Origin: Escherichia coli
Lineage (GTDB): Bacteria > Pseudomonadota > Gammaproteobacteria > Enterobacterales > Enterobacteriaceae
Assembly (NCBI RefSeq): GCF_046105845.1
Contig: NZ_CP151004.1
Strand: one strand, 5' to 3'
Length of the DNA: 64,000 nt
Shown here: positions 17,716-28,393 of the stretch, in pieces
Layout of the letters: the number at the start of each line of letters is the position of its first letter
Numbering within the stretch: the stretch's first letter is position 1
The notes under the pieces: model-generated
Told to the model about the DNA's origin: nothing
The model's database searches: none
The model's input: only the letters and a program-made list of their open reading frames with translations
Position numbers and translations under genes: made by a program

Positions 17716-19556
17716 TTATTGCGACTGCCGGACACGTTGACCACGGCAAAACAACCTTATTGCAGGCGATTACTGGCGTAAATGCCGATCGTCTGCCGGA
17801 AGAAAAAAAGCGCGGCATGACTATCGATCTCGGCTATGCCTACTGGCCGCAGCCGGATGGTCGCGTGCCTGGTTTTATCGACGTACCCGGTCATGAAAAG
17901 TTTCTTTCCAACATGCTGGCGGGCGTTGGTGGTATCGATCACGCGCTGTTGGTGGTGGCGTGCGATGACGGCGTGATGGCACAGACCCGTGAGCATCTGG
18001 CGATTTTGCAGCTGACCGGTAATCCGATGCTGACAGTGGCGCTGACCAAAGCCGATCGCGTGGACGAAGCGCGTGTTGATGAGGTTGAACGCCAGGTAAA
18101 GGAGGTGCTGCGGGAATACGGTTTTGCTGAGGCAAAACTGTTTATCACCGCAGCAACCGAAGGTCGGGGAATTGATGCCCTGCGCGAGCATCTGCTTCAG
18201 TTACCAGAACGCGAACACGCCAGCCAACATAGTTTCCGCCTCGCGATCGACCGCGCATTTACCGTAAAAGGTGCCGGGCTGGTCGTCACCGGTACGGCGT
18301 TAAGCGGGGAAGTGAAGGTAGGCGATTCACTATGGCTGACTGGTGTAAATAAACCGATGCGCGTGCGTGCGCTACATGCGCAAAATCAGCCAACAGAAAC
18401 TGCCCATGCCGGGCAGCGTATCGCGCTTAACATCGCGGGTGATGCGGAAAAAGAGCAGATTAACCGTGGCGACTGGCTGCTTGCCGATGCGCCGCCGGAG
18501 CCGTTCACACGGGTGATTGTCGAGCTTCAAACCCATACACCGCTGACCCAGTGGCAGCCGCTGCATATTCACCACGCCGCCAGCCACGTCACGGGACGCG
18601 TTTCGCTGCTGGAAGATAACCTTGCCGAGCTGGTGTTCGACACGCCGCTGTGGCTGGCGGATAACGATCGCTTAGTGCTGCGCGATATCTCGGCCCGCAA
18701 CACGCTGGCGGGGGCGCGTGTGGTGATGCTTAACCCGCCGCGTCGCGGTAAACGTAAGCCGGAATATCTGCAATGGCTGGCGTCACTGGCACGGGCGCAG
18801 AGCGATGCCGATGCGTTATCTGTTCATCTGGAACGCGGCGCGGTTAACCTTGCCGATTTCGCTTGGGCACGGCAGCTCAACGGCGAAGGGATGCGCGAAC
18901 TATTGCAACAGCCTGGCTATATTCAGGCTGGTTATAGCTTGTTGAATGCGCCGGTTGCCGCCCGCTGGCAGCGGAAAATTCTCGACACATTAGCGACTTA
19001 TCATGAGCAACATCGCGATGAACCTGGTCCTGGGCGCGAACGTCTGCGACGTATGGCGTTGCCAATGGAAGATGAAGCGCTGGTACTGTTGCTGATTGAA
19101 AAGATGCGCGAAAGCGGCGACATCCTCAGTCATCACGGCTGGCTGCATCTGCCAGATCACAAAGCGGGATTCAGCGAAGAGCAGCAGGCCATCTGGCAAA
19201 AAGCAGAGCCGCTGTTTGGTGACGAGCCGTGGTGGGTGCGTGATCTGGCAAAAGAGACGGGAACCGACGAGCAGGCAATGCGCCTGACGCTACGCCAGGC
19301 GGCGCAGCAAGGAATTATTACCGCGATCGTTAAAGATCGTTATTACCGTAACGATCGGATTGTCGAGTTTGCCAATATGATCCGCGATCTCGATCAGGAG
19401 TGTGGTTCAACCTGCGCGGCGGATTTCCGCGATCGCTTAGGTGTAGGCCGAAAGCTGGCAATTCAGATTTTGGAATATTTTGACCGCATTGGCTTTACGC
19501 GGCGTCGTGGAAATGATCATTTATTGCGCGACGCATTATTATTTCCGGAAAAATAA
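17712..19556 (+). CDS. selB: selenocysteine-specific elongation factor
   Basis: 614-aa ORF with GTPase motifs [10 protein letters not shown] and DVPGH; C-terminal winged-helix extension. Confidence 0.95.
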
Positions 19557-19614
19557 TGAGATAATTAATTAAGATTAATTAGGAAACACTCTAAAAATCT
19601 TATTAATTTTTAAA

Positions 19615-19641
19615 AAAGCACATTCGGATGTGCTTTTTTTA
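19615..19641 (+). terminator. rho-independent terminator after selB
   Basis: agcacattcggatgtgct stem-loop followed by a T7 run. Confidence 0.6.
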
Positions 19642-19734
19642 TGGCCTCTTATAAAAAGAGCAATAGCGGTCATGTTTTCAAATAAAAACACTTCGTAAGC
19701 TTCTCGCCCTTTTATACTCGTTCAGGAGTGTGTT

Positions 19735-20884
19735 ATGGCTGCTTCCACCTTTTTTTATTCCTTCCGTTAATGTCATTGGTGCAGATTCTTTTAAAGATGC
19801 GATGAATATGATGGCGGAATATGGTTTTCGCCGTACATTAATTGTGACTGATAGTGTGCTAACAAAATTAGGTATGGAGGGTGATGTACAAAAAGCATTA
19901 CAGGAACGTGATATTTTTAGCGTAATTTATGATGGTACGCATCCTAACCCGACCACAAAAAACGTCGCAGAAGCTCTTAAAATGCTGACGGAAAATAATT
20001 GCGATAGCGTGATTTCTTTAGGTGGTGGTTCCCCGCACGACTGCGCAAAAGGCATTGCGCTGGTGGCAGTTAACGGCGGCGATATTCGCGATTACGAAGG
20101 CGTGGATCGCACGGCGAAACCGCAACTACCGATGATTGCCATCAACACCACGGCGGGTACTGCATCAGAAATGACCCGTTTTTGCATTATCACCGACGAA
20201 GCACGCCACATCAAAATGGCGATTGTGGATAAACACGTCACCCCGCTGCTTTCTGTGAACGATTCGACTCTGATGATGGGTATGCCGAAGCCGTTAACCG
20301 CCGCCACCGGGTTGGACGCGCTGACTCACGCCATCGAAGCGTATATCTCTATTGCGGCAACGCCGATCACTGACGCCTGCGCGCTGAAAGCAATGACCAT
20401 GATCGCGGAAAACTTACCGATAGCGGTTGAAGATGGTCACAACGGCAAAGCGCGTGAAGCAATGTCTTACGCTCAGTTCCTCGCGGGCATGGCGTTTAAT
20501 AATGCTTCACTGGGATACGTACACGCGATGGCGTATCAGTTGGGTGGCTTCTATGACCTGCCGCACGGCGTTTGTAATGCCATTCTGCTGCCGCACGTTC
20601 AGTTATATAACAGCAAAGTTGCCGCCGCACGCTTTGACTGCGCGGCGGCTATGGGCGTGAATGTCACAGGCAAAAACGACGCGGAAGATGCGCAAGCCTG
20701 CATTAAAGCGATTCGCGAACTGGCGAAGACAGTGAATATCCCGGCAGGCCTGCGCGATCTGAATGTGAAAGAAGAAGATTTTGCGGTGCTGACCACCAAT
20801 GCCCTGAAAGATGCGTGTGGATTCACTAACCTTATTCAGGCAACCCATGAAGAAATTGTGGCGATATATCGCGCCGCAATGTAG
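19735..20884 (+). pseudogene. iron-containing alcohol dehydrogenase (YiaY/FucO family) paralog with an apparent +1 frameshift after codon 7
   Basis: ATG at 19735 with RBS aggag reads [15 protein letters not shown]; removing one T from the 7-T run restores [18 protein letters not shown]...; rest of ORF 19730..20884 is a full-length Fe-ADH (GGGSPHD motif, His-rich metal site). Confidence 0.6.
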
Positions 20885-21244
20885 TTCTCTTCCCGCAACG
20901 GCTGGCGCGTTGTCAGCCGTTTTGCTGAAGATATTACTGTATTTATGATATGGATATCAGACTATTAAAATATATTCAGACCTGTTTTGGAATATCTCAA
21001 TAATATTCGTTTCATTTGCGGTCGGGGGAAGAATTACCTACTATTCGCTGAGCGTTAAGGCCTGCTAATTGATCAACTTATGATCAATCAATATGGAAAA
21101 GTTATTGTTAAATAAATAACATATCGCACGCTGAATACGTCATGAATTTTTTTCAAGAAATATGTTATTAATAGTAAAGATGATCAAATTTATAAGCTTT
21201 TTTTATCTGTAAGCTGCGCCCCTTTTTCATATGGAGATAAAAAC

Positions 21245-22396
21245 ATGGCAGCTTCAACCTTTTTCATTCCCTCTGTGAATGTAATTGGCGCGGATTCATT
21301 AAAAGATGCAATGAATATGATGGCGGATTATGGTCTGCGTCGTACATTAATTGTGACAGGCCGTGTAATGGGCAAGAGCAGCGTGTTGGTGCAACTCCAA
21401 CAAGCCTTGCAGGAACGCAATATCGTAAGCGTTGTTTATAATGGCTCCCAACCGAACCCAACGACGAAAAACGTGGCTGCGGGTTTAAAAATATTGCAGG
21501 AAAATAATTGTGATAGCGTTATCTCCTTAGGCGGCGGTTCTCCACATGACTGTGCAAAAGGGATTGCGCTGGTGGCAACCAACGGCGGCGATATCCGGGA
21601 TTACGAGGGCGTAGACCGCTCGGCGAAACCGCAATTGCCAATGATTGCCATCAACACCACGGCGGGTACGGCGTCTGAAATGACCCGTTTCTGCATCATT
21701 ACCGATGAAACGCGCCACATCAAAATGGCAATTGTGGATAAACACGTCACCCCAATTCTTTCTGTTAATGATTCTACGTTAATGATGGGGATGCCGGAGT
21801 CACTGACCGCCGCCACTGGGATGGACGCATTAACCCATGCCATCGAAGCATATGTCTCTATTGCGGCAACGCCGATCACTGATGCTTGTGCATTGAAAGC
21901 GGTCACCATGATTGCTGAAAACCTGCCGCTGGCAGTAGCAGACGGAAGCAATGCCCAGGCGCGTGAAGCTATGGCTTACGCCCAGTTCCTCGCGGGTATG
22001 GCGTTCAACAACGCATCGCTGGGTTACGTTCATGCAATGGCGCACCAGTTAGGTGGTTTTTACAACCTGCCTCACGGGGTGTGTAATGCTGTTTTGCTGC
22101 CGCATGTTCAGGAGTTCAACAGCAAAGTTGCCGCTGCACGCCTGCGTGACTGCGCGGCGGCAATGGGTGTGAATGTAATGACAATGAACGAAGCTGAAGG
22201 TGCGCAAGCTTGCATTAATGCCATTCGCGAGCTGTCGAAGAAAGTGAATATCCCGGCAGGCCTGCATGAACTGGATGTTAAAGAAGAAGATATTCCGGTA
22301 CTGGCCACCAATGCCCTGAAAGACGCATGTGGGTTTACAAACCCAATTCAGGCAACCCACGAAGAAATTATGGCGATTTATCGCGCCGCAATGTAA
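21245..22396 (+). CDS. yiaY: iron-containing alcohol dehydrogenase (YiaY family), intact, 383 aa
   Basis: [26 protein letters not shown]...; Fe-ADH motifs; length matches what I recall for K-12 YiaY; which of the two copies is the true ortholog is uncertain. Confidence 0.8.
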
Positions 22397-22410
22397 TTAC
22401 CCTTCCTCCA

Positions 22411-22440
22411 GCGGCTGGCGTTTTGTCAGCCGTTTTTTTA
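22411..22440 (+). terminator. terminator hairpin after the second alcohol dehydrogenase gene
   Basis: cggctggcgttttgtcagccg followed by a T run; a related hairpin follows the first copy at about 20893-20915. Confidence 0.5.
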
Positions 22441-22521
22441 ACTATCTCAAAATTCGCGTTTTTTGAGATAGTTTCTCTTTCCTGCTATACACTATCTCAA
22501 TATTACGCTTTTTTGAGATAG
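22441..22521. promoter_or_regulatory. two copies of a 31-bp palindromic element upstream of the fic gene (candidate operators)
   Basis: actatctcaaaattcgcgttttttgagatag (22441-22471) and actatctcaatattacgcttttttgagatag (22491-22521); each is an inverted repeat tatctcaa...ttgagata; 50-bp spacing; ends 5 bp before the fic start. Confidence 0.6.
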
Positions 22522-22525
22522 GCAA

Positions 22526-23821
22526 ATGGTTATCAAATCACCTCCCACGCTGATTCCTTTATCACACTTATCGGGTGAGGAACTCCAGGCCCACCTGCGC
22601 TTTAACCGGGTTACCGATGAAAAAGGACGTTATCTACCTTTTGATGAGTTGCAGTACCGCATCAAAAAAGGAGAAAACGTCGAAGTGGCGTGGACGCTTA
22701 CCCGTCTGGCGCGCAACGCGGCGATCCAACGAATCAATTATTGCAATGAAGCGGGTGAACAGGCCGGATACAACATTACCCCGGTGATTGCAGAAGCGTG
22801 CGAGCTTGTCGACAAACGTGCTACCGCGCTGGCGCTGAAAGATCAGACTGAACGGTTACGCGGGGCCGGAGCCGAGTTAAGCCAGTTACGCCTGGAAGAG
22901 CCGATCACCAGCTCCCAGCTGGAAGGTGCGAATACTACAACGCTGGTGGCGAGAAAAATGCTGGAAACAGGGCGGTCGCCACGCACTGAAGACGAGCATA
23001 TGATTGCAGGAAATGCCCGACTGATGGCGGAAATTCCGCACTTACTCGCAGAACCGCTGACACCTGCGCTTATTCGCCAGTTACATGCCATTGGTATGGG
23101 TGGAATCAATGACGCGAAATATCGTCCGGGAGAATTTCGTGAAACAGATGATGTTGTGATCGCCGACTATGACGGCAATATTGTGCACCAACCGCCCGCT
23201 GCGGCATTGTTGCCGGAACGGCTGGAAAAAGTTTGCCAGTGGTTAAACAGCCATGAAGGGTATATTCACCCGTTAATCCGTGCCTGCATTCTGCATTTTA
23301 TGCTGGCCCATGAACATCCATTTCGCGATGGCAACGGGCGCACCAGTCGGGCACTGTTTTACTGGTATATGCTGAAATCGGGCTACGATGTTTTTAAATA
23401 TATTTCCATCAGCCGTTTTCTTCATGCTGCGCCAGTCAAATATGCTGCCAGCTACCAGTACACTGAATCAGACGGTATGGATCTGACTTATTTCCTTGAG
23501 TATCAGGCGGGTGTCATTAAACGTGCTTTGCAAAACTGGCAGCAGCATATTGATGAAATTATGCAACGAAGTGCAAAACTCGATAGTGTGCTGTTTAGCT
23601 CTGGTGTGCTTAAACGCCTGAATCCGCGCCAGGTAACGCTCCTGAATGTGATGCTCGCCAATCCGGGGAAAGAGTACACAGTTGCTGAAATTAGCGCGAG
23701 CCTGGGCGTCTCTGATAATACGGCTCGAGCTGATTTACGGACAATTGTTAAAGAAGGGTTTGCGCAAGAGAAAAGAATTAATAACCAGCAAGCAGTGTAC
23801 GTCGCACACTACCCGCTGTAG
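22526..23821 (+). CDS. Fic-domain protein (putative AMP-transferase), 431 aa, with N-terminal inhibitory-type motif and C-terminal HTH-like region
   Basis: Canonical Fic motif [12 protein letters not shown] at residues 264-275; S-x-x-x-E-G match (SSQLEG) at residues 129-134; C-terminal about 70 aa resembles a winged helix-turn-helix. Confidence 0.85.
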
Positions 23822-23928
23822 CTTTTGCCCGTAAATTCGTGATAGCCGTCGTAAAGCTGTTACCGACTGGCGAAGATTTCGCCAGCCACGTCTACCCTTG
23901 TTATACCTCACACCGCAAGGAGACGATC

Positions 23929-25467
23929 ATGACCAATAATCCCCCTTCAGCACAGATTAAGCCCGGCGAGTATGGTTTTCCTCTTAAGTTAAAAGCCCGT
24001 TATGACAACTTTATTGGCGGCGAATGGGTAGCCCCTGCCGATGGTGAGTATTACCAGAACCTGACGCCGGTGACCGGGCAGCTGCTGTGCGAAGTGGCGT
24101 CTTCGGGCAAACGAGACATCGATCTGGCGCTGGATGCTGCGCACAAAGTGAAAGATAAATGGGCGCATACCTCGGTACAGGATCGCGCGGCGATTCTATT
24201 CAAGATTGCCGATCGGATGGAGCAGAACCTCGAACTGTTGGCGACGGCAGAAACCTGGGATAACGGCAAACCCATTCGCGAAACCAGTGCTGCCGACGTG
24301 CCGCTGGCGATTGACCATTTCCGCTATTTTGCCTCGTGTATTCGGGCGCAGGAAGGCGGGATCAGTGAAGTCGATAGCGAAACCGTGGCCTATCATTTCC
24401 ACGAACCATTAGGCGTGGTGGGGCAGATTATCCCGTGGAACTTCCCGCTGCTGATGGCGAGCTGGAAAATGGCCCCTGCGCTGGCGGCGGGCAACTGCGT
24501 GGTGCTGAAACCCGCACGGCTTACCCCGCTTTCTGTACTGCTGCTAATGGAAATCGTCGGTGATTTACTGCCGCCGGGCGTGGTGAACGTGGTCAACGGC
24601 GCGGGTGGGGAAATTGGCGAATATCTGGCGACCTCGAAACGTATCGCCAAAGTGGCGTTTACCGGCTCAACGGAAGTGGGCCAACAAATTATGCAGTACG
24701 CCACGCAAAACATTATTCCGGTAACCCTGGAGCTGGGCGGCAAGTCGCCAAATATCTTCTTTGCTGACGTGATGGATGAAGAAGATGCCTTTTTCGATAA
24801 AGCGCTGGAAGGCTTTGCACTGTTTGCCTTTAACCAGGGCGAAGTTTGCACCTGTCCAAGCCGTGCTTTAGTGCAGGAGTCTATCTACGAACGCTTTATG
24901 GAACGCGCCATCCGCCGTGTCGAAAGCATTCGTAGCGGTAACCCGCTCGACAGCGTGACGCAAATGGGCGCGCAGGTATCTCACGGGCAACTGGAAACCA
25001 TCCTCAATTACATTGATATCGGCAAAAAAGAGGGCGCAGATGTGCTTACCGGCGGGCGGCGCAAGCTGCTGGAAGGCGAACTGAAAGACGGCTACTACCT
25101 CGAACCGACGATTTTGTTTGGTCAGAACAATATGCGCGTGTTCCAGGAGGAGATTTTTGGCCCGGTGCTGGCGGTAACCACCTTCAAAACGATGGACGAG
25201 GCGCTGGAGCTGGCGAATGACACGCAATATGGCCTGGGCGCGGGCGTCTGGAGCCGCAACGGTAATCTGGCCTATAAGATGGGGCGCGGCATTCAGGCCG
25301 GGCGCGTGTGGACCAACTGTTATCACGCTTACCCGGCACATGCGGCGTTTGGCGGCTACAAACAATCAGGTATCGGACGCGAAACCCATAAGATGATGCT
25401 TGAGCATTACCAGCAAACCAAGTGCCTGCTGGTGAGCTACTCGGATAAACCGTTGGGGCTGTTCTGA
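23929..25467 (+). CDS. aldB: aldehyde dehydrogenase B
   Basis: 512 aa from [17 protein letters not shown] (RBS aggag upstream); aldehyde dehydrogenase family with catalytic Cys region; the 542-aa ORF is a 5-prime extension. Confidence 0.9.
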
Positions 25468-25744
25468 TATAAGAAGCTGGTCGCATTGGGTATTCATTGC
25501 CTGATGCGACGTTTGCGCGTTTTATCAATTCAAATGTCTACGTCTTGAATGACTGAATATTGATTGAACTTAATTACGAGTCTCCTCGCATATTTTCTAC
25601 CAATTACTGCACACCGTTATTCTTCTTCCGAGTGGCATTCCTGAGTCAACTTTATCCCCCTGACGGCCCATATAAATCGCGCTATCGTGATTGTTATCGC
25701 TAATTGTGTGTGTATCGTGTGTATAATCATGGAAGGGCAGGGAT

Positions 25745-25930
25745 GTGAAAAGTGCAGACGTGATCGCCATCCTGAAGCAGCATGGCTGGGAACATATTCG
25801 AACCCGTGGCAGTCATCATCAGTTCCGCCACCCTGTTCATCCGGGTCTGGTGACGGTTCCGCACCCTAAAAAAGATATTAAGCCCGGTACGCTGGCGCAA
25901 ATTGGGCGTCAGGCTGGTTTAACATTTTAA
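25745..25930 (+). CDS. hicA: HicA-family toxin
   Basis: 61-aa basic protein (GTG start) ...LKQHGWEHIRTRGSHHQFRHP...; size and G-S-H-H motif fit HicA; immediately followed by hicB. Confidence 0.75.
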   Translation: MKSADVIAILKQHGWEHIRTRGSHHQFRHPVHPGLVTVPHPKKDIKPGTLAQIGRQAGLTF

Positions 25931-25946
25931 AATTTCAGGAGGCAAT

Positions 25947-26357
25947 ATGTTTTATCCCGCCTATATCCACAGTGATCCTGACGGCAGCGCCAGCGGTTTT
26001 TTCCCTGATGTTCCAGGCTGTTATTTTGCTGGTGATACGCTGGACAACGCTTTCCAGGATGCGCGAAGTGCACTGGTCGCGCACTTCGAAACCTTATGCG
26101 AGATGAATGAAGAGTTGCCGCTTCCAGGCTCTGTGGAAACACATCTGGTCCAGCGTGCGCAGGACTTTATTGGCGGGCAATGGTTGCTGGTGGATATCAA
26201 TATGAATCAATTCGAAGGTCGGGCTGAACGTATCAATATTACGATGCCAAAAAGATTACTGAACAAGATTGATACCTACGTGCGCAATAACCCAGACTAT
26301 GCCAACAGAAGTGCGTTTCTGGCGGAAGCTGCCCGGCGTGTATTGCCGGGCGTTTAA
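25947..26357 (+). CDS. hicB: HicB-family antitoxin with C-terminal ribbon-helix-helix-like region
   Basis: 136 aa; N-terminal HicB-like fold; C-terminal RINITMPKRLLNKIDTYV...RSAFLAEAARR resembles an RHH DNA-binding domain; 16-bp gap after hicA. Confidence 0.75.
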   Translation: MFYPAYIHSDPDGSASGFFPDVPGCYFAGDTLDNAFQDARSALVAHFETLCEMNEELPLPGSVETHLVQRAQDFIGGQWLLVDINMNQFEGRAERINITMPKRLLNKIDTYVRNNPDYANRSAFLAEAARRVLPGV

Positions 26358-26402
26358 TCTCGCGTTTCGATGGTTGGCGGGCAACCGCACCGATATGTTG
26401 AT

Positions 26403-26432
26403 ACTGATAAGACGCGTTAAGCGTCGCATCAT
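26403..26432. repeat. REP-like element at the hicB / glycosidase 3-prime junction
   Basis: ctgataagacgcgttaagcgtcgcatcatg resembles a REP unit; a partial REP-like gcctgatgcgacg lies near 25500 after aldB. Confidence 0.5.
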
Positions 26433-28393
26433 GCGCTGGTTTCCTCATTCACCCAGATCCGCATTTCGCCTTCACCCCGGTTGGCCCAGCTAAACCACGG
26501 GATAAAGGTCAGGGTTTGCGGCTGGCGTTTGGCTGGCGCACTGTCGTAATGCCACAGCGGTTGTTGTTCTGGATTGCTCTGTTCATACCGGTAACCCGGT
26601 GCCTGGATTAAGATCTTATGGCTGAACAATCCCTTACCTTCAAATGTCGTAAATGGCGCATCGGCGGGCAGCCACAGATTATGCAGTGACTCGCCGTTGT
26701 CGGCCTGTTCCAGGCAATACACCAGCGGGCCGCGCTGAATCGCCACTTTTCCGGCGACGTGACGCACCAGCGGGTTACCGTAAACGCGGCGTACCGGCAT
26801 CGGCAAAGTCAGATTCAGCGTATCGCCCTCCTGCCATTCGCAGGTAATGTGCAAATACCCTTTACGAATATCCTGCTCGACCTCTTCCCCATTCAATATG
26901 ATCTGCGGCTGTGTGCACCAGTCCGGCAGACGTAAAGCCAGCGTATGACGCACCGGCTGGGGCGATTCAACCGCAATTGTCACCTGTTCCTGCCACGGAT
27001 AGTTTCCGCTAACCCGCAGACGCAGCGTGCCATTTTCTACCGGCACTTCCATGCTGTTTCCTGCGTAGATGTTGATATACAACGCATCTTCACGCGGCGT
27101 GTAGAGATAATGACCAATCGAGGTTAGCACGCGGGCGATATTTGGCGGACAACAAGCGCAACCAAACCAACGCTGGCGGATCGGCTTAACGTGATCGTAG
27201 ATATGGTTGAATTTTAACGTTTTTGGATGCACTTCCAGCGGATTAACGTAGAAGAAATGTTTGCCATCCAGCGCCATGCCGCCGAGCACGGTGTTGTACA
27301 GTGCGCGCTCCATCACATCGGCATATTGACTGTCGCCTTCCATTTCCAGCATTCGCCGGGCGAACATCATCAGGCCGATGGAAGCACAGCTTTCGGCGTA
27401 TACCGTGTCATTCGGCAGATCGTAATCGCTGCTGAACGCTTCGCCGCTGCTTTGTGAGCCAATGCCGCCGGTAATATATAACTGACGCTGGGCCATATTG
27501 TTCCACAGCCGCAGGCAGTCCTGACGCTTGCTTTCATCGTGACTTAAACGCGCGAGATGCGCGACACCGGTCATCAGATATACAAAGCGTACTGCATGTC
27601 CGATGGCGGTTTGTTGCTGTGCGATGGGCAAATGCGCCTGGCTGTAGGCTTTATCTTTCACCATCCACGCCGGGCCGTAGGTGTGCCAGTGCGAGGTCTG
27701 CCCGCGCTTTTCATATTCCTGGTCGTAATAGTGCGGTTGCGCACCACGCTGTTCGACAAAATAGTTCGTCAGCGCCAGGTAGCGCGGCTCTTCGGTCACT
27801 TCATACAGGCGCATTAGTGCCAGTTCAATTTCCGGGTGACCAGGATAACCGTGTAACTTACTTTCACCTGGACCAAATACGCTGTCGATATGATCGGCCA
27901 GACGGCAAACCACTTCCAGCAAGCGCCGCTTGCCCGTGGCCTGGAGGAAGGCGACTCCGGCTTCAATCAGATGACCGGCGCAGTAAAGTTCATGACACTC
28001 CGCCAGATTGCTCCAGCGTTCTTCGGGCGCTTTTACCGTAAAGTAAGTATTGAGATAGCCATCTTCGCACTGGGCGGAAGCGACCAGTTCGATTACCTCG
28101 TCAGCGGTTTTTTCCAGTTCGGCATCCGGCTTCTGGCACAGCGACCAGGCTACCGCTTCCAGCCATTTGGCGACGTCGCTGTCCTGAAACACCATCCCGT
28201 AAAATTCACCGTCTTGCAGTCCTGCGGCAATGCGAAAGTTTTCAATCGCATGGCTGGGTTCCGCTTCTGGGATACGATCGTTCAAGGCATCCCACTGATA
28301 AGGAATCACCACGTCGCGGACCAGTTGTTGGTACTGACCGAGGAACGGATCGCTGACCGTCAGTTTATGCAGATCGACTTCCGAAATGTTCAT
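26429..28393 (-). CDS. glycoside hydrolase family 127-like protein (DUF1680 / beta-L-arabinofuranosidase-like)
   Basis: About 654 aa from MNISEVDLHKLTVSDPF; AAGGAG RBS 6 nt upstream of this start; Cys-rich C-terminal half as in HypBA1-type enzymes; assignment is from family resemblance by eye. Confidence 0.65.
   Translation of the reverse strand: MNISEVDLHKLTVSDPFLGQYQQLVRDVVIPYQWDALNDRIPEAEPSHAIENFRIAAGLQDGEFYGMVFQDSDVAKWLEAVAWSLCQKPDAELEKTADEVIELVASAQCEDGYLNTYFTVKAPEERWSNLAECHELYCAGHLIEAGVAFLQATGKRRLLEVVCRLADHIDSVFGPGESKLHGYPGHPEIELALMRLYEVTEEPRYLALTNYFVEQRGAQPHYYDQEYEKRGQTSHWHTYGPAWMVKDKAYSQAHLPIAQQQTAIGHAVRFVYLMTGVAHLARLSHDESKRQDCLRLWNNMAQRQLYITGGIGSQSSGEAFSSDYDLPNDTVYAESCASIGLMMFARRMLEMEGDSQYADVMERALYNTVLGGMALDGKHFFYVNPLEVHPKTLKFNHIYDHVKPIRQRWFGCACCPPNIARVLTSIGHYLYTPREDALYINIYAGNSMEVPVENGTLRLRVSGNYPWQEQVTIAVESPQPVRHTLALRLPDWCTQPQIILNGEEVEQDIRKGYLHITCEWQEGDTLNLTLPMPVRRVYGNPLVRHVAGKVAIQRGPLVYCLEQADNGESLHNLWLPADAPFTTFEGKGLFSHKILIQAPGYRYEQSNPEQQPLWHYDSAPAKRQPQTLTFIPWFSWANRGEGEMRIWVNEETSA

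Follow-up and report, generated by a model that had tools for sequence, protein, structure and literature searches.

The first of two tandem yiaY-type genes in a rare Escherichia coli lineage is very probably a homopolymer frameshift pseudogene

In ordinary E. coli a single yiaY gene lies between selB and Fic/aldB, whereas the stretch of DNA analysed here (64,000 nucleotides, hereafter called the window) carries two yiaY-type genes in the order selA-selB-gene 1-gene 2-Fic-aldB, with gene 1 occupying the yiaY slot. Near its start gene 1 has a run of seven T (T7) that puts the native ATG out of frame with the gene body, and the question is what this run represents. The first-pass annotation had offered three answers: a homopolymer sequencing error, a recent inactivation, or a slippage-prone on/off switch. 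From the comparison of gene 1 with its orthologs and among its known carriers, we consider it very probable that gene 1, a redundant paralog, has become a pseudogene through a homopolymer frameshift fixed in its lineage, with the intact gene 2 adjoining it.

From direct reading and by script, the ATG at 19735 stands behind its AGGAG with a spacer of 6 nt, and translation from this RBS-served start does run off frame at the T7, as had been noticed at the outset, meeting the TAA at 19768-19770 after 11 codons (Table 1). When one T was removed from the run by script, the frame was uninterrupted as far as 20884. The rest of the gene had accordingly been called full length, which is correct for the open frame but not for the repaired product, which has 382 residues instead of 383 owing to a one-codon deletion (AARL-DC versus AARLRDC). 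It had also been claimed that deleting a T restores the match to the downstream paralog; this holds at the protein level, but not for the DNA, where the paralog reads ACC TTT TTC ATT (T5C, not T6). The long open reading frame that begins at GTG 19730 comprises 384 codons. The window contains 16 T7 and 8 A7 runs, a T7 alone being commonplace; judged from the sequence, the significance of the one in gene 1 is its position and the frame break that it makes at codon 8 relative to all orthologs.

Table 1. Features of the yiaY-type locus, in window positions
Feature	Position	Strand	Remarks
Divergent island of ~3 kb with both paralogs	19557..22525	.	Stands where ordinary E. coli has its single yiaY
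Shine-Dalgarno AGGAG of gene 1	19724..19728	+	Homologous to the ordinary E. coli yiaY RBS CAGGAGTGTGTTATGGC
Gene 1 body, yiaY-type iron-dependent alcohol/threonine dehydrogenase	19730..20884 (from ATG: 19735)	+	+1 frame relative to native ATG; judged a pseudogene
GTG in the frame of the gene body	19730..19732	+	1 nt past AGGAG; also upstream of intact E. coli yiaY
Residual 11-codon ORF, native ATG (19735-19737) to TAA (19768-19770)	19735..19770	+	
CTG, the NCBI start of a 381-aa 'L-threonine dehydrogenase' (MLPPFF...)	19739..19741	+	In draft genomes carrying gene 1
T7 run, the primary frameshift lesion	19750..19756	+	In every known gene 1 copy
M193L (TGMDAL to TGLDAL)	20312..20314	+	Last of three post-frameshift changes in the window haplotype
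TAT = Tyr267 (H267Y)	20534..20536	+	His in 115 YiaY orthologs and the three closest solved homologs (HAMAHQLGG)
L300F (AARL-DC to AARF-DC)	20633..20635	+	Derived, post-frameshift
Stretch intact in the window, broken in other sub-lineages	20705..20719	+	
Pro to Leu in the conserved TNP motif (GFTNPIQ to GFTNLIQ)	20831..20833	+	Derived, post-frameshift
Gene 2, intact yiaY-type paralog, 383 aa	21245..22396	+	Own RBS, 360-nt upstream region; undisrupted in 31/31 samples

The island that holds the two paralogs begins where selB ends (~19557) and reaches only as far as the beginning of Fic (~22525). Its flanks are E. coli-like, with selB mostly 93-100% and Fic/aldB 92-99% identical, and since selB is 98-99% identical to that of E. 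coli the chromosome is of the E. coli type. Gene 1, gene 2 and E. coli yiaY are mutually deep-diverged (dS 0.8-1.0, amino-acid identity 84-90%), and at >90% identity neither gene 1 nor the island is found in any of the 5,426 complete E. coli genomes of RefSeq that were searched. The island occurs beside two selB haplotypes with 2.6% of their sites differing; it may have been imported from another species or be an ancient polymorphism. An Rfam scan of positions 19000-27000 gave no match, and a consensus scan for promoters and terminators found fewer sites than in shuffled sequence, which makes it uninformative for gene 1.

Two further features of the neighbourhood may be recorded. E. coli genomes are polymorphic for the presence of the Fic-family gene (22526-23821) that separates yiaY from aldB, and K-12 is among those without it; about 1,571 of the 5,426 complete E. 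coli genomes cover ⩾80% of a query made of gene 2 plus Fic. Beyond aldB, a stretch of about 0.9 kb leading to a GH127 gene carries a HicA toxin (25745-25930; PF07927, E = 2e-23) and a HicB-like antitoxin (25947-26357; PF15919, E = 9e-36), and this pair has no counterpart in E. coli L1PEag1.

Both paralogs are recognized by the YiaY family model (NCBIfam NF007363, an L-threonine dehydrogenase equivalog with a cut-off of 581), the repaired gene 1 product scoring 798.1 bits and gene 2 796.1 bits, and the Fe-ADH Pfam domains are listed for the shifted gene 1 ORF as well. The closest structure to gene 1 is that of Zymomonas mobilis ADH2 (3OWO/3OX4; E = 2e-149 to 3OWO). Gene 1 retains all of Asp194 (20315-20317), His198 (20327-20329), His263 (20522-20524) and His277 (20564-20566), which correspond to the metal ligands of the Z. 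mobilis ADH2 and FucO structures. Tyr267, which stands for the conserved second His of the HxxxH motif, and the one-codon deletion are present in all gene 1 protein variants examined. Thus, gene 1 resembles YiaY and the group III iron-dependent alcohol dehydrogenases in its full-length model match and its metal ligands, and is unlike them in H267Y, in the one-codon deletion, in the Leu that the window allele has for the TNP Pro, and in its native start, the frame from the RBS-served ATG being uninterrupted in a YiaY gene and broken here.

The site of the one-codon deletion (20624-20650; AARLRDC to AARL-DC) coincides with a tandem repeat in one YiaY variant (P0027, AARLRDC four times), and other E. 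coli YiaY variants have larger internal duplications, which suggests that the sequence at 20624-20650 is repeat-like and prone to indels. The odd lengths of the protein matches P0022, P0026 and P0027 come from internal duplications in what is otherwise ordinary E. coli YiaY, and these matches have no bearing on the frameshift.

Gene 2 is under purifying selection (omega ~0.07) and has peculiarities of its own. It carries D39G (VTD to VTG) at an otherwise invariant Asp, its block of codons 33-64 is only 61% DNA-identical to E. coli yiaY, and seven of its ten private substitutions at invariant sites fall within residues 39-68 (21359-21448). In related iron-dependent dehydrogenases the Asp equivalent to position 39 contacts the NAD ribose; by analogy, D39G together with the diverged block may have altered the cofactor preference of gene 2.

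What was the run before the frameshift? Gene 1 keeps the upstream region, RBS, GTG and ATG context of yiaY. The E. coli yiaY alleles of CE10 and L1PEag1 read ...CAGGAGTGTGTTATGGCAGCTTCAACC-TTTTTT-ATTCC, that is, T6 at codons 6-7, and alleles such as these, not the downstream paralog, are the proper T6 comparators; in K-12 yiaY the run is interrupted (ACG TTC TTT). Since gene 1 keeps the yiaY context and the run-bearing E. coli alleles are T6, its extra T is the derived state. T6 and T7 were told apart by exact protein look-ups, BLAST of the 5,426 E. coli genomes conflating T6 with T7 plus one SNP. Hypothetical T7 versions of two common T6 yiaY alleles are absent, the alleles themselves being found on >1,000 and on 362 contigs.

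The same run is also altered in ordinary yiaY. One T is lost (T5 for the normal T6) in eight of the ten places shown, out of 24 contigs read (L030-L034, L036, L037 and L039), which amount to at least eight samples on two sequence backgrounds (L033 having K-12-like SNPs and a Fic neighbour). A truncated 361-aa YiaY call (P0155) is found on 21 contigs, as against >1,000 for the intact allele. The T-run at yiaY codons 6-7 is thus a recurrent natural frameshift site, given T5 in at least eight samples and two backgrounds.

In gene 1 itself the run length does not vary. Each of the 35 independent samples has a run of 7 bases, 34 reading TTTTTTT and one TTTATTT, with neither T6 nor T8 among them; these samples comprise NCBI isolates, ENA metagenome assemblies, Logan assemblies of sequencing runs and the window, and some of them share studies of origin. 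All nine loci that were fetched through the neighbouring gene 2, and so without bias for run length, have T7. The exact GTG-frame ORF of the window occurs on several contigs in the collection of 15 billion proteins, whereas hypothetical T6 'revertant' proteins, looked up there for four haplotypes, are missing in every case. A homology search of 5.8 billion protein clusters gave no intact relative more than ~85% identical, every relative at 99-100% being the shifted form. A scan of JGI metagenome contigs for a gene 1 start with any run of 4-10 bases gave no match and is thus uninformative on run length. The carriers fall into at least seven gene 1 haplotypes on two selB backgrounds, which means that the T7 state has been stable through appreciable diversification. 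The one exceptional copy (L028, SRR14368318) is interrupted at the equivalent of window position 19753 with the total length unchanged; it is metagenome-derived, has two more private changes (P288S and one synonymous), and may reflect real drift or a low-coverage assembly error.

Compared with E. coli yiaY, gene 1 has an omega of 0.05-0.07 at a dS of ~0.8-1.0, which indicates that it was constrained and working for nearly all its history. The polymorphisms that arose after the frameshift are of another kind: 10 are nonsynonymous, a nonsense change included, and 1 is synonymous, and there is an 11-bp deletion besides. The corresponding ratios are 3:4 in gene 2 and 9:16 in Fic, 12:20 in sum, and although these counts are small, the contrast with the 10:1 of gene 1 gives a Fisher p of 0.0025. 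The binomial probability of 10:1 is 1e-7 under an omega of 0.06 and 0.24 under neutrality.

In addition, a second ORF-breaking lesion is found in 13 of the 35 samples, which form two sub-lineages with two independent kinds of lesion. One is the 11-bp deletion (equivalent to 20709-20719), seen in eight fetched samples, its protein being on 24-26 contigs; the other is a nonsense change at K326 (AAA to TAA, equivalent to 20705), seen in five fetched samples, with the protein on 9-10 contigs. With orthologs as outgroup, the ancestral shifted haplotype has V176, M195, L302 and P368 (numbering of the GTG ORF, here and below), and it is actually observed (P0173/P0170). The window allele is this ancestor plus L302F, P368L and M195L, acquired in succession with no synonymous change. 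None of these three sites varies among 115 YiaY orthologs, and the closest solved structures keep the TNP Pro. The window allele thus has T7 and three later changes, as yet without a second break of the ORF. Two other signs were set aside. Private substitutions at invariant sites number 13 in gene 1 and 10 in gene 2 and are not diagnostic of decay alone; the open 384-codon frame is no evidence of function, since with so small a number of mutations it has no power, and other sub-lineages have the frame interrupted.

Gene 1 therefore bears marks of a pseudogene, namely a disabling lesion relative to functional orthologs, relaxed selection and further lesions, and the inactivation proposed in the first-pass annotation is borne out by the 10:1 ratio and by the two independent second knock-outs. 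Its description as 'recent' is apt in comparison with the long constrained history of the gene, but not in the sense of a very young event, as the lesion predates the split into at least seven haplotypes and two selB backgrounds.

The course of events that we propose starts in a rare E. coli lineage with two deep-diverged tandem yiaY copies, gene 1 being in the normal yiaY slot. Replication slippage would have added one T to a T6 run in codons 6-7. Ribosomes recruited by the well-spaced AGGAG would then initiate at ATG 19735 and terminate after 11 codons at TAA 19768, yielding no gene 1 enzyme or only traces of it. The loss would have been tolerable thanks to the intact gene 2; yiaY is in any case non-essential and can be deleted in the laboratory (PMC3439341, PMC10918650). 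The lesion would have been fixed in the ancestor of all known carriers, with gene 1 drifting as a pseudogene from then on. Such a trajectory is that of a classic pseudogene whose function is covered by its neighbour.

Might gene 1 be leaky instead, down-tuned but functional? Some enzyme could arise from a GTG or CTG start, with an N-terminus of MLWLLPP... or MLPP... that keeps FFIPS, or could be made with the native N-terminus if RNA polymerase lost a U or the ribosome slipped by +1 on UUU UUU U. In keeping with this, 384 codons are open from GTG 19730, only the residues before FF differ, the metal ligands are retained, and the uninterrupted T7 is conserved in 34 of 35 samples. We nonetheless regard such an outcome as unlikely: the remaining sample has an interrupted run (TTTATTT), two sub-lineages have lost the downstream frame by the 11-bp deletion or the nonsense change and the lineage persists, and the 10:1 ratio fits neutrality, not constraint. 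The later knock-outs in these sub-lineages show that the gene 1 product is dispensable.

GTG 19730 lies 1 nt from the Shine-Dalgarno sequence, a spacer that is too short by established Shine-Dalgarno spacing, so the early remark that this codon is badly placed for the RBS was right; nor is it an adaptation for rescue, since it is also found upstream of intact yiaY. A CUG start is weak and reaches 1-2% of the AUG level even where the context is optimal (10.1101/063800). Both GTG 19730 and CTG 19739 would be expected to compete poorly with the ATG. Slippage of the E. coli RNA polymerase is detectable in reporters from 7 T upward, T7 being the minimum (PMC6260861), which speaks for the leaky reading and makes rescue at the percent level conceivable; the known utilised cases have ⩾9. 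The downstream frame, which transcriptional-slippage recoding would keep in all carriers, is broken in 13 of 35. The rescue needed in gene 1 is a deletion of one U, while the published values at T7 are for insertion (~5% reporter rescue, and 0.75% mRNA insertions at a T7 tract); for rescue by deletion a figure is given for T8 (10%) and none for T7 (PMC6260861).

As for the ribosomal route, the sequence has neither a slow A-site codon nor a nearby stimulator for a +1 shift. Programmed +1 shifts of the prfB type are marked by an A-site codon that is slow or a stop, by a Shine-Dalgarno-like stimulator a short way upstream, and by conservation in orthologs. In gene 1 the A-site codon after UUU is UAU, the sole Shine-Dalgarno sequence precedes the shift codon by ~25 nt, and orthologs read in frame without a shift. 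Programmed -1 frameshifting on the U-run was also discarded, the run being preceded by a C and the gene needing a shift of +1 or -2.

A more specific version would make gene 1, in copies without a second lesion such as that of the window, a 'pseudo-pseudogene' that yields perhaps ~1% of the enzyme with its native N-terminus through a U dropped from a small share of transcripts, or, in a related form, would make the T-run at codons 6-7 a preferred target of repeated, possibly advantageous loss of yiaY (T7 here, T5 in ordinary alleles). We hold this to be quite improbable. If the dropped-U reading were true, gene 1 would be a strongly down-tuned paralog and not a dead one. Pseudo-pseudogenes and slippage-recoded genes include Shigella mxiE (T9), Thermus dnaX (A9), Citrobacter rodentium tssM and the 9A/9T genes of Baranov et al. 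2005 (PMC1088944). Gene 1 is like the slippage-rescued genes in being out of frame with a poly-T/A run at the junction whose length is conserved among carriers, and unlike them in that its run has 7 and not ⩾9 bases, a deletion is needed, the ORF has decayed in sub-lineages and the orthologs are in frame.

A phase-variable switch, in which the T-run would expand and contract at high frequency so that gene 1 is on at T6 and off at T7 or T5 within populations, is very improbable. In its favour would be the T5 alleles of ordinary E. coli yiaY, in which this run at codons 6-7 has contracted in at least eight samples on two backgrounds. Against it, there is zero length variation across 35 samples and seven haplotypes, the T6 revertants of four haplotypes are missing from the 15 billion sequences, the T7 versions of the two common T6 alleles are absent, 7 bases are short for a homopolymer switch, and decay downstream means that the off state is permanent. 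In many bacterial genomes selection against A/T runs is evident from ~9 nt (PMC1088944). Like the contingency loci of Neisseria, Haemophilus and Campylobacter, gene 1 has a frame-setting mononucleotide run in its 5' coding region; unlike these loci of slipped-strand mispairing, it has no tract polymorphism, its tract of 7 T is not long enough for high-frequency slippage, and it is a metabolic gene instead of a surface or restriction-modification gene.

It is hardly conceivable that the T7 is a homopolymer sequencing or assembly error in this genome and that gene 1 is really T6 and intact: some long-read platforms do often produce false homopolymer indels, but 34 further independent samples, which come from several sources and assemblers, have a run of identical length, so that only a systematic artefact common to all platforms would account for it, the carriers including the NCBI drafts GCA_044249515.1 and GCA_026687785.1 as well as ENA metagenome and Logan assemblies. 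The first-pass annotation had asked for the T-run length to be compared across related genomes, and the constancy of 7 bases in 35 of 35 gene 1 samples, nine of nine unbiased loci among them, disposes of its sequencing-error option; its on/off switch is left unsupported by the same constancy, with no T6 form on record.

Taken together, the reading of gene 1 as a lineage-fixed frameshift pseudogene places it with the homopolymer-slippage pseudogenes of redundant or dispensable enterobacterial genes, in which a single-base gain in a short 5' run becomes fixed in the lineage, selection is relaxed, secondary lesions follow and an intact paralog adjoins; there is no essential difference. The one oddity relative to such pseudogenes is that the lesion is so early that an upstream in-frame GTG preserves a full-length ORF. 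The search of the yiaY literature found no description of this frameshift in gene 1, and the case appears to be undescribed, although redundant paralogs are well known to turn into pseudogenes by homopolymer slippage.

The value of the case is mostly practical, and the understanding of mechanism is unchanged by it. An early frameshift can be masked by a fortuitous upstream in-frame GTG or CTG, and annotation then reports an intact 'L-threonine dehydrogenase' of 381-384 aa. NCBI has 381-aa records that start at the CTG (HCX5476358.1, MCN2719939.1, HBB8111600.1, HFX4494130.1, HBA6839197.1 and HBA6810432.1) and do not flag the frameshift, and other gene callers start gene 1 at GTG 19730 (384 aa); in view of the population evidence, which marks gene 1 as a pseudogene, its NCBI annotation as intact is probably wrong. 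The analysis also documents a rare yiaY locus of E. coli, with two ancient, deep-diverged copies.
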